DNA of 64,000 bases from a virus. Its lineage: Duplodnaviria; Caudoviricetes. The position numbers and the translations under genes are program-made. The DNA lies in the IMG/VR virus record IMGVR_UViG_3300042196_000418; one strand, written 5' to 3'. Below the pieces are notes generated by a model. It did not search any database. It was not told the DNA's origin and saw only the letters and a list, made by a program, of their open reading frames with translations. Below are positions 1-18,878 of the stretch, in pieces. Each line of letters starts with the position of its first letter. The first letter of the stretch is position 1.

Positions 1-3000
1 CCCGCGCGACCGCAGCCAGCGATCGCGACGCACAAGAGTGATCGGGTGCGCGCGAAGGTGCAGTCATTTCAACCCTCGCGACCGCAGACAGCGATTAGCG
101 ATTCCCTCAAGCACGAGTTGCTGCATGGCGGGTTTCTTGTTTCAACCCTCGCGTCGGCACCCTCGTCGTTTCAACCCGCGCGACCGCAGACAGTGATCGC
201 GACACCACGAAGCGAGCCACGCCAGGATCGCGGCACGGCTGCTTCAATCCGCGCGACCGCCGCCAGCGGTCGCGACAACGCTTCCAAGCCGTGCTTCACG
301 GCGCTGATCTGTCGTTTCAACCCGCGCGACCGCAGACAGCGATCGCGACATCTTCGGGCATTTTGCGTTGGTCATTCGCCGACGATGTTTCAACCCACGC
401 GACCGCAGACAGCGATCGCGACCCTCCATGCGCAGGACCCCGTGCCTGACTACACGATCGTTTCAACCCGCGCGACCGCAGACAGCGATCGCGACGCGGC
501 ACTGGATCGTTCCCACGTGCAAGGGGTGCAAGTTTCAACCCGCACGACCGCAGACAGCGATCGCGACGAGCTTCAGAGGTGGGGTTGGCGACTTCGTTTC
601 AACCCGCGCGACCGCAGACAGCGATCGCGACGCCGTGGATGGTCCGCGCGGAGTGGCGGCGGGACTTGTTTCAACCCGCGCGACCGCAGACAGCGATCGC
701 GACCGTCCGCTGGATCCATGCGCCCGTAGCTTTCGCTGCGTTTCAACCCGCGCGACCGCAGACAGCGATCGCGACGACTGCGTTGGTGGTCGCGGACAAC
801 GTCCGCGTGATCGTTTCAACCCGCGCGACCGCAGACAGCGCTTCGTGACACGCCTGGAGGCGCCGTGCAGAAGTTCGTTTCGCTCGTTTCAACCCGCGCG
901 ACCGCAGACAGCGTTCGCGACAAGGTGCCGTGGACGGTTGGCTCGCTGCGGATGATGTTTCAACCCGCGCAACCGCAGACAGCGATCGCGACCTTTCCGA
1001 AGGACCTGGCGGCGGACGTCGAGGAGTTATTTCAGCCAGCGCGACCGCAGACAGCGATCGCGACGTTCCACAACCAGCTCGCGATCGAGCCTCTACGGTC
1101 GTTTCAACCCGCGCGACCGCAGACAGCGATCGCGACTACTGAGGCCAGTGCCCACCAACAGCGACCCAAGGGTGTTTCAACCCGCGCGACCGAAGACAGC
1201 GATCGCGACCCGGCGTACGTCGATGGCGACGGACGCTTTCGAGTGTTTCAACCCGCGCGACCGCAGCCAGCGATCGCGAACTCATCTCGAAGCTGCTGGG
1301 CAACGCCATTTCAACCCACACGACCGCAGCCAGCAACTACAGGCTTGCGTACCCAGCCGTACGCCCGCAGACGTCTAGGTGTTTCAACCCGCGCGATTCG
1401 CGATATGCCGCAGATCGCAACCGCAGACAACGATTGCGACAGCTAGTTATCGTCCTCGTCGGGTTCCTCGCTCTCCTCATTTCAACCCTCGCGACCGCCG
1501 CCAACGATCGCGACGCTGCTACTCTTCAATAAGGCTCGGCCTCCCATCGTTTCAACCCACGCGACCGCCGCCAACGATCGCGACGCCATCTCAGGGCACC
1601 TCAGCGTCCTTGTTTGTTTGTTTCAACCCGCGCAACCGCAGCCAACGATCGCGACCTGCTCGCCGAGCAGGCAGTGAAGCGTGTTGTTGTCCGTTTCAAC
1701 CCGCGAGACGCAGCCAGCGCTCGGAACTCAAGCCAGCGTCGTCGCAACCTCAAGGTCGTAGCCGTTTCAACCCGTGCGACCACAGCCAGCGATCGGCCAT
1801 GGTCCTCGCGACTACGCTGGTTCCCGATCACGTAGTTTGTTTCAACCCGCGCGACCACGGCCAGTGATCGCGACCTTGTAGCTCGCGCGCGATCTCGAGC
1901 AGCGTCCGCGCTATAGGCATCCACTGCACGTTGGTTTCAACCCGCGCGACCGCGACCGCAGTCGCGACCTGAATCCGCTCCGGGGGATTCTCTGGCACGC
2001 CGCGTTTCAACCCGCGCGACCGCAGCCAGCGATCGCAACTGGCTGACGTACGTCGCGTTCACGTTGTGGGAGCTGTTTCAAGCTGCGCGATCACGGACAA
2101 CGATCGCGATGACAAGCTTCCATCCAGCTTCCTGATTGGTGTTTCAACCCGCGCGACCGCGGACAACGGCCACGACGCCGCAAATCACGATCATGGATAC
2201 GCCGATCGAGCCGTTTCAACCTGCGCAACCGCAGTCAGCAATCGCGACCGGCGGCACGCCGGTCGACTGGATCGTCAATGACGTGTTTGTTTCAACCCGC
2301 GCGACCGCAGTCAGCGATCGCGACACTACTCGTCAAGGATCTCGGCTCGCCGACATGGCGGTTTCAATCCGCGCGACCGCAGCCAGCGATCGCGACGTGA
2401 CAGAGCGTTCGTTTCAACCCGCGCGACCGCAGCCAGTGATCGCGACTCAAGCCCAGCTACCTCGGTCGCATGCTCGCGTTCGTTTCAACTCGCGCGACCG
2501 CAGACAGCGATCGCAGCGCTTCCGAGCGTCTCGTACGCCTCCTTCATTCGGCGGTTTTTCAAGCCCGCGCAATCACAGCCAGCTATCACGATCTGGAGGA
2601 CGTTGCCTGCGAGGGAGAGACCGGTGACGTTTCAACCCGCGCGACCGCAGCCAGCGCTCGCGACTCTCCGAGGCCGGGGAGTTTTTACTCGCGCGGCCCG
2701 CAGCCCGTGATCGCGACCCCACGCAGCCGAGGAAAGTCCACGGCCATGTCTTCGTTTCAACCCGCGCCACGTCACCGACAGCTCGTCGCGATTGCTGGCC
2801 GTGGCCGTGGTCGCGCGACTTCGCGCAGAGCTGTTTCAACCCACGCGACCGCAGACAGCGATCGCGACTTTCCTCAGCGGCATTGCAGCTGTCGCTGGCA
2901 TCGCGTTTCAACCCTCGCGACCGCAGCCAGCGATCGCGACGCGTGCGCCGGTCTCGGGTACTGGCTCTACCGGTTGGTTTCAACCTGCACGACCGCAGCC

Positions 3001-18686: not shown

Positions 18687-18878
18687 GTGCCTACGCGATC
18701 CCCCAGGATTAAAACCAAGAAGCGAGACACGACCGTGTTCCTTCAGGTGAAGGTCAGCCGTCGCGCGGCCGACTTGCTTCGCAAGCGGGCGAAGCGCGCG
18801 TTACGCTCGCAGGCAAGTTACTTGCGGGCTGTTATCTACCGAGACCTCGGCATTTTCAGCGAAATAGACAGCCGCTGA
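18687..18878 (+). CDS. Ribbon-helix-helix-like DNA-binding protein, probably leaderless, divergent from cas3
   Basis: Beta-alpha-alpha pattern TVFLQVKVS-RRAADLLRKRAK-RSQASYLRAVIYRDL. An in-frame GTG sits 5 nt after the -10 box; the ORF track start is 18669. Confidence 0.65.
   Translation: MPTRSPRIKTKKRDTTVFLQVKVSRRAADLLRKRAKRALRSQASYLRAVIYRDLGIFSEIDSR

Follow-up and report, generated by a model that had tools for sequence, protein, structure and literature searches.

Canonical type I-C CRISPR-Cas systems, such as those of Desulfovibrio vulgaris and Neisseria lactamica (7KHA, 8G9S-8G9U), are arranged in the order cas3-cas5-cas8c-cas7 and have no Cas6. They carry a Cas8c loop of the RTSG type and a repeat that forms a hairpin followed by a tail ending in TTGAAAC. 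All of these traits, along with homologous Cas5c, Cas8c, and Cas7c proteins, are present in the virus record IMGVR_UViG_3300042196_000418 (Duplodnaviria; Caudoviricetes), of which a stretch of 64,000 nucleotides, referred to as the window, was analyzed. The locus occupies positions 1-18878 and is a type I-C derivative in which four defining features have failed: an active Cas3 (its motifs are dead), a collinear Cas7 (it is permuted), an adaptation module (there is no cas4-cas1-cas2 in the locus), and the Cas5 triad (it is replaced). It also differs from the canonical systems in its repeat of 36 nt instead of 32 nt, spacers of 36-37 nt, and approximately 168 repeats.

Among described systems, the nearest in mode of action would be those class 1 systems that mobile elements use without a nuclease, which include type IV-A3, the Tn7-linked Cascades, and Cas3-less type I-C. 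Type IV-A3 of conjugative plasmids (10.1101/2023.06.23.546257) has no adaptation module, performs nuclease-free interference in conflicts between elements, and acquires spacers in trans. It relies on Csf-type proteins and a DinG helicase and has a known trans donor, whereas the window system has dead helicase motifs, and no donor host for trans-adaptation was identified when about 185,000 species genomes were searched with its repeat. All Cascade subunits of the window match type I-C families and not the Csf type, so that the type IV combination with DinG or CysH is absent. The Tn7-linked I-F3 and I-B systems and an incomplete, Cas3-less type I-C with a Cas8-Cas5 fusion (PMC10910872) are likewise type I Cascades that no longer degrade DNA and for which DNA binding is the actual or proposed role. 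These systems lost cas3, while the window keeps it in an inactivated state under selection and without transposon genes.

Two further systems are phage-borne. One is a type I-C variant that Al-Shayeb et al. (2020, PMC7162821) described in huge phages. It lacks Cas1 and Cas2, has its Cas3 replaced by an unrelated helicase, and includes a Cas5d-like protein whose active-site residues are altered. For systems of this kind, repression without cleavage was proposed, and the phage arrays are compact, with a median of six repeats. In contrast, the window retains a true Cas3 homologue in a dead form and a giant array, and a permuted Cas7 is not mentioned in the sections of that paper that were consulted. 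The second system is on a 314-kb contig (L004) whose Cas7 belongs to the P0148/P0170 family. It resembles the window in its permuted Cas7, operon order, lack of adjoining adaptation genes, and very large virus-like contigs. It is unlike the window in its Cas7 breakpoint, its intact Cas3 HD, Walker A, DEAH, and motif VI sequences, its intact Cas5 Y/K/H triad, and its array of 18 canonical 32-nt repeats. No description of a dead-Cas3 type I-C system or of a permuted Cas7 was found in the literature searched.

An earlier note, made from the letters of this DNA alone, had proposed a non-cutting, RNA-guided DNA binder. The favored reading, held at roughly even odds (about 0.5), is that a huge phage-like element carries a module derived from type I-C that has come to bind DNA instead of destroying it. 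It is the best reading because the nuclease and helicase motifs of Cas3 are lost, the genes are under purifying selection, the Cascade genes are intact, and no adaptation genes, Tn7 genes, or substitute nuclease lie nearby. Here and below, negative results on the genes of the element refer to the 64-kb window. The genome extends at least 220 kb past the window start and would measure about 360 kb if the element matches its 359-kb relative.

The module lies on the minus strand and comprises the cas3-like gene, cas5c, cas8c, cas7, a leader, and the array, with every gene intact, as the earlier note had described. The four genes match Cas_Cas7, Cas_Csd1, Cas_Cas5d/TIGR01876, and, just under its cut-off, cas3_HD. 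Their third-codon-position G+C (74-88%) is within the range of the other genes in the window. The same four genes and a long array are present on a 359-kb contig (L001), an 18.5-kb contig (L002), and, according to gene calls, a fourth contig.

The cas3-like gene (16466-18565, minus strand) encodes a 699-residue homologue that aligns to the solved type I-C Cas3 across both RecA-like domains (E 6e-23). Its Walker A has changed from PTGGGKT to PSSIVDA, motif II from DEAQ to EDAW, and motif VI from GRCNR to QRADA. Three HD histidines are also replaced (H by D in motif I, HD by SD in motif II, and HH by TH in motif IV), which leaves the aspartate of the HD motif, the motif III histidine, one motif IV histidine, and the motif V aspartate in the HD site. 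The protein has no match to a Pfam helicase family and scores 41.4 against cas3_HD, where the cut-off is 43.45. In the same alignment, all motifs are intact in the phage Cas3 of L004 and in a canonical Cas3 (P0019). The earlier claim of a dead Cas3 thus holds. An AlphaFold model of the protein was poor, with a predicted local distance difference test (pLDDT) score of 52.9, and was not used.

The lesions are not confined to one contig. Thirteen relatives with 47-83% identity, all from soil and sediment assemblies, have the helicase lesions in common, and the former motif positions carry the same residues in eight aligned relatives; the replacements themselves are conserved. The most distant relative (P0018, 47% identity) lacks Walker A and retains every HD histidine, which suggests that the helicase was lost before the HD nuclease.

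This helicase-dead, HD-intact stage speaks for an RNA-guided nickase, in which no ATP-driven shredding would take place and the displaced strand would be nicked by the altered HD site (D, SD, H, TH, D). The four residues left in the HD site of the window protein fit the same idea. However, every close relative has lost three metal-binding histidines to other residues, and changing the HD-motif histidine abolishes nuclease activity in studied Cas3 proteins. A nickase is an unlikely explanation of the locus.

The ratio of nonsynonymous to synonymous substitution rates (dN/dS) among the window, L001, and L002 is 0.20-0.23 for the cas3-like gene, compared with 0.09-0.28 for cas5, cas8, and cas7. 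No frameshift or stop interrupts the operon open reading frames (ORFs) of these three loci read as DNA. Neutral decay of homologous loci, which the earlier note had named as refuting its proposal, is not seen. A decaying type I-C remnant with no present function would account for the lost catalytic residues of Cas3 and Cas5 and for the heavily degenerate arrays of L001 and L002. That explanation was rejected on dN/dS, since a value near 0.2 for all four genes, equal in cas3 and the Cascade genes, speaks against decay. It also conflicts with the uninterrupted reading frames, the 13 relatives, the conserved residues at former motif positions, and the perfect leader-proximal repeats; it is largely refuted and retains only a very small probability. 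Given purifying selection on a gene with lost motifs, the Cas3 homologue is maintained for a function other than ATP hydrolysis and, most likely, other than DNA cutting.

Outside the ATP site, the Cas3 homologue and active Cas3 share the blocks WDAPV, LF.N, H.IA, and LSS.MC..RR, which we take to be DNA-contact motifs of superfamily 2 (SF2) helicases; they are a lead and not a result. A predicted complex of the Cas3 homologue with residues 1-300 of Cas8c scored 0.73, against 0.00 for the best control. Of 80 solved complexes, 58 reached the docking mark that it passed, as did 2 of 110 mismatched pairs. The docking runs agreed on at least 58% of contacts, partner pLDDT was at least 82, and the predicted interface joins Cas3 residues 537-578 to Cas8c residues 21-53 and 150-173. 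Because the N. lactamica Cascade-Cas3 complex is already solved (8G9U), the pass may reflect likeness only and is not proof of docking.

The predicted docking would suit an adaptor as well as a lock. DNA could still be destroyed if the dead Cas3 recruits a nuclease in trans, either the type I-C Cas3 of a host or another nuclease encoded elsewhere on the element. The window is only part of the genome, and near-identical spacer pairs in the array could reflect an arms race with targets escaping a costly attack. However, no nuclease adjoins the operon in the window, the neighbors differ among the window, L001, and L002, and a dead Cas3 on the Cas3 docking site would compete with the host Cas3. 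Destruction in trans is rather unlikely.

In the remainder of the window (18.6-64 kb), none of the 65 other ORFs matches Cas1, Cas2, Cas4, a Tn7 protein, or a second Cas3, and TnsA, TnsB, TnsC, and TniQ are absent from their Pfam matches. There is also no Cas6-type match among the window ORFs and no cas1, cas2, or cas4 beside the operon in L001, L002, or the fourth contig. The earlier note was right that adaptation and Tn7 genes are missing locally. No substitute nuclease was detected beside the operon or in the other 45 kb of the window, and Cas8c and Cas5 carry no HNH insertion, matching only Csd1 and Cas5d.

The cas7 gene (Csd2 type; 12320-13402, minus strand) encodes a genuine circular permutant. 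Window residues 62-231 correspond to residues 113-282 of D. vulgaris Cas7c (7KHA_B) and residues 259-344 to residues 3-92, and the same half-swap is seen in the family profiles. Between the former C-terminus and the former N-terminus runs a linker of about 20 residues, while the new ends consist of a disordered N-terminal tail rich in K, N, and G and an acidic C-terminal tail. The protein scores 195.6 bits with Pfam and 181.5 against a cut-off of 182.25 with TIGR02589, and is homologous to the family model without being collinear with it. A structural model built on an alignment of permuted relatives and halves of canonical proteins is confident (pLDDT 82.5; predicted template modeling score, pTM, 0.78). 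Its best structural matches are type I-C Cas7 chains, with about 200 columns aligned at 2.5 Å, the coverage expected of a sequential aligner on a permutant. These results agree with the permuted Cas7 of the earlier note.

An exhaustive search returned 2180 Cas7 relatives, and the best 150 cluster representatives comprise 147 canonical and three permuted proteins. P0020 is a close relative of the window Cas7. P0038 has the same breakpoint at 32% identity and is encoded on a phage contig with a terminase, and P0148 has a breakpoint shifted by about 35 residues. About ten clusters make up a separate family of P0148-type proteins, whose contigs reach 314 kb. No relative of the window Cas7 was found in IMG/VR viral contigs. 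By sequence, Cas7 permutation recurs in at least three phage-borne type I-C lineages with two different breakpoints. It is also independent of the state of Cas3: the permuted Cas7 of L004 accompanies a motif-intact Cas3, and the P0038 locus (L003) and another P0148-type locus (L006) are cas5-cas8c-cas7 operons with no adjacent cas3. Permutation and Cas3 death, which the earlier note had listed together in one variant, are therefore separable, and a permuted Cas7 is not tied to nuclease loss.

Two further observations concern Cas7. A 488-residue Cas7c (P0021) contains a partial tandem duplication, with an N part, a C part, a fragment of the N part, and the C part again. This duplication is the kind of intermediate able to yield a circular permutant, and it could be an assembly artefact. 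In the N-terminal tail of the window Cas7, GCCGTT repeats (13292-13345) encode an Asn/Gly-rich stretch with small indels between contigs of different sequencing runs, and the length of the tail therefore differs among strains.

The remaining Cascade subunits are type I-C proteins with altered details. Cas8c (Csd1; 13445-15502, minus strand; 685 aa) scores 165 bits with Pfam Cas_Csd1 (cut-off 27) and 135 with the NCBIfam equivalog (cut-off 218.65), and is thus a divergent member of its family. It has no inserted nuclease domain, and loops and an acidic tail account for its extra length. Its RTSG-type loop (RTSGN) sits at the position where N. lactamica Cas8c has its protospacer-adjacent motif (PAM) interaction loop (10.1101/2023.08.05.552134), which hints at a T-rich PAM. 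The internal cas11 placed within cas8c by the earlier note is unproven, as the start has no clear ribosome-binding site and the sole candidate is a GTG at codon 512 behind AAGGA.

Cas5c (Cas5d; 15512-16144, minus strand) scores 90 bits with TIGR01876 against a cut-off of 85 and E 3.9e-15 with Pfam Cas_Cas5d. At the triad positions, the window, L001, and L002 have L, A, and F, L004 and L006 have Y, K, and H, and L, K, and F occur in the Cas5 solved from N. lactamica. The Y/K/H residues are presumably the catalytic triad with which the Cas5c enzyme of Bacillus halodurans cleaves the precursor of CRISPR RNA (crRNA).

The array (1-12142, minus strand) contains 160 detected repeats of 36 nt between positions 66 and 12142 and eight oversized gaps that each hide about one repeat, for a total of about 168. 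Most spacers are 36-37 nt long. In the crRNA sense, which is the minus strand, the repeat begins with GTCGCG, ends with GGGTTGAAAC, and folds into a 9-bp hairpin followed by a tail of 10-11 nt, the layout of type I-C. It conforms to the type I-C pattern of a hairpin and a tail of about 11 nt ending in (A/G)TTGAAAC, at a length of 36 nt versus the usual 32 nt found in L004. The repeats are perfect in 43 of the 57 units nearest the cas genes (8001-12142), in agreement with the pristine leader-proximal repeats of the earlier note, and decay toward position 1, with a mean of 3.3 mismatches in 1-4000. Growth of the array therefore took place at the 12142 end, and its old, degenerate end at the window start may run past position 1.

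The arrays of the relatives are also very long. They contain at least 80 units in L001 (16198-22035) and at least 55 in L002 (11240-16001), spaced from 7 to about 200 nt apart, with heterogeneous and heavily degenerate repeats in successive blocks of differing variants. The last ten repeat bases (GGGTTGAAAC) are near-invariant and the hairpin part drifts, although compensatory changes preserve the hairpin where it persists. Perfect leader-proximal repeats and block-wise variants fit polar growth, and the overall pattern fits an array that has long gained units as copies of a first repeat that itself changed, while selection acted on the crRNA handle.

The 177-nt leader (12143-12319, minus strand) is conserved in L001 and L002 over its last 100 nt or so. 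It contains a 17-bp hairpin followed by a run of T (12200 to 12164, minus strand), which resembles a terminator and ends about 12 nt before the first repeat. The hairpin is conserved in L001 and L002, where changes in the upper stem preserve pairing. Its role could be to dampen transcription running on from cas7 into the array, or to act as a leader signal for spacer integration.

A solitary type I-C-like repeat unit is found at about 42249-42280 on the minus strand, at the 3' end of a ParB-like gene, and consists of an 8-bp hairpin followed by CGGATTGAAAC. It may be a chance occurrence, since its fold is no better than that of shuffled sequence (z -0.33).

A solitary repeat of this kind and the viral mimicry of Cas proteins (PMC10910872) would suit a role in counter-defence, with the dead Cas3, and perhaps the phage Cascade as well, acting as decoys that tie up type I-C components of the host. 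However, about 167 mostly unique spacers would be superfluous in a decoy, and so would a complete, conserved Cascade operon that has a 36-nt repeat type of its own. Counter-defence is an improbable account of the module.

The 135 well-delimited spacers are almost all unique; the exceptions are an identical pair, two pairs with a single-base difference, and a partial match. The similar pairs (632-667 and 10114-10148; 8887-8922 and 9969-10005; 9033-9069 and 9607-9643) lie far apart in the array and may reflect repeated acquisition from the same, possibly mutating, target. Read in the crRNA sense, positions 1-3 of the spacers are enriched for A (40%), A (44%), and C (45%), compared with about 21% A and 32% C overall, and T is rare at the third base from the spacer end (4 of 135). 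These end biases may be the footprint of a PAM or of prespacer trimming. Codon-model tests found no strand bias (69 to 66); the spacers resemble natural coding DNA, and coding and intergenic origins are indistinguishable by these tests.

The locus is also present in three sediment metagenome runs from three studies, in which short contigs join the same repeat to spacers that are not in the window. Thus, spacer content varies in nature. No spacer matches were found in the rest of the window, L001-L003, a phage collection, or a plasmid collection. Patterns with N at every sixth base likewise returned nothing, with five such spacer patterns searched against IMG/VR viral contigs and two against metagenome contigs. 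The contigs of the sediment runs contain no clear protospacer; one contig of run X2 matches exactly from a spacer start (11852) after 255 unlike letters and is a candidate protospacer only. The spacers therefore yielded neither targets nor a PAM in the collections searched.

The earlier note also held that adaptation is borrowed in trans. No donor emerged: the 36-nt repeat type does not occur as an array in the approximately 185,000 species genomes scanned, where three single matches are close to the chance estimate, and the repeat pattern has no match in IMG/VR viral contigs.

The proposed mechanism for a DNA-binding module begins with transcription of the array and loading of crRNAs with a GGGUUGAAAC-type 5' handle into a Cascade composed of Cas5c, Cas8c (perhaps with an internal Cas11 product), and the circularly permuted Cas7. 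This complex would recognize PAM-flanked double-stranded DNA through the Cas8c loop and form an R-loop. The Cas3 homologue, which would neither hydrolyze ATP nor cut DNA, would be retained in a non-catalytic role, docking as a subunit on Cas8c at the R-loop, where it would hold or lock the complex and may keep active Cas3 away. The outcome would be nuclease-free interference that blocks transcription or replication of competing elements or host genes. New spacers would enter at the leader end through adaptation proteins encoded outside the locus. A bolder form of this proposal is tentative and on balance doubtful: in a huge-phage lineage, type I-C would have become a heritable and highly multiplexed means of silencing, equipped with more than 160 guides, in which the dead Cas3 serves as an R-loop lock on a permuted-Cas7 Cascade. 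The Cas3 homologue would then be a natural 'dCas3' subunit, and the system a new derived type I subtype.

Several points weigh against a DNA binder. Cascade assembly and silencing by binding are inferred from sequence, and no protospacer, PAM, or promoter bias was found in the collections searched. The replaced Cas5 triad makes crRNA processing uncertain, as the usual cleavage site may be gone, and a terminator-like hairpin stands just ahead of the first repeat. The Asp and Ser residues that replace His in the HD site could still bind metal and give weak HD activity. Finally, an active Cas3 or cas1, cas2, and cas4 may lie in the genome beyond the 64-kb window. The proposal of the earlier note is therefore upheld in its structural part, namely the motif losses, selection, intact Cascade, and lack of a nuclease beside the operon, while its targets, PAM, and promoter bias did not come to light.

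The surroundings of the module are consistent with a phage. This assignment is based on the contigs of relatives (359 kb and 18 kb), which are dense in small unknown genes, and on two genes of the window, a tyrosine integrase (27386-28414) and the ParB-like gene. The window showed no structural phage gene, and its 18.5-40 kb part has no match to known phages. Next to the operon, the window encodes a nucleotidase, HAD and VWA proteins, and a ClpX-type zinc-finger protein, with no nuclease among them. A scan of 12000-19400 found no sigma-70-like promoter, and the window has no Rfam match.

Two small genes accompany the operon. Upstream of the cas3-like gene is a divergent 69-residue gene (18669-18878, plus strand) that is kept in L001 and L002 and corresponds to the divergent ribbon-helix-helix gene of the earlier note. 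Its product, which shows a strand-helix-helix pattern and gives a weak NikA-like match (E 0.014), is probably a ribbon-helix-helix regulator of the operon. The 78-residue ORF (16198-16434, minus strand), which has its own AGGAG site, lies in a lineage-specific insert of about 290 bp that is absent from L001 and L002. Its product resembles small viral proteins by language-model features only. The ORF is outside the conserved module and not core to the system, contrary to its inclusion in the earlier note.

Elsewhere in the window, coding regions contain a 150-bp tandem duplication (25357-25659; two copies, 92% identical) and a perfect 51-bp tandem duplication (57448-57545; 1.9 copies). An AAA_21/AAA_15-type ATPase (62056-63027) resembles the ATPase subunits of anti-phage systems (PtuA, GajA, and AriA models), and no partner gene was identified in the window.

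Known type I derivatives that quit cutting have lost cas3, whereas a dead cas3 is retained here under selection like that on the Cascade genes. This shared selection points to a non-catalytic job for the protein, such as an R-loop lock or a target shield. The recurrent permutation of Cas7 is a natural test of how far the Cascade backbone tolerates rewiring, and of whether phages keep their own complex apart from that of the host. Because the locus of this phage array lacks adaptation genes, the origin of the spacers between its roughly 168 repeats is a further question, and a binder this compact, with four genes and an inactive Cas3 built in, could serve as a tool.

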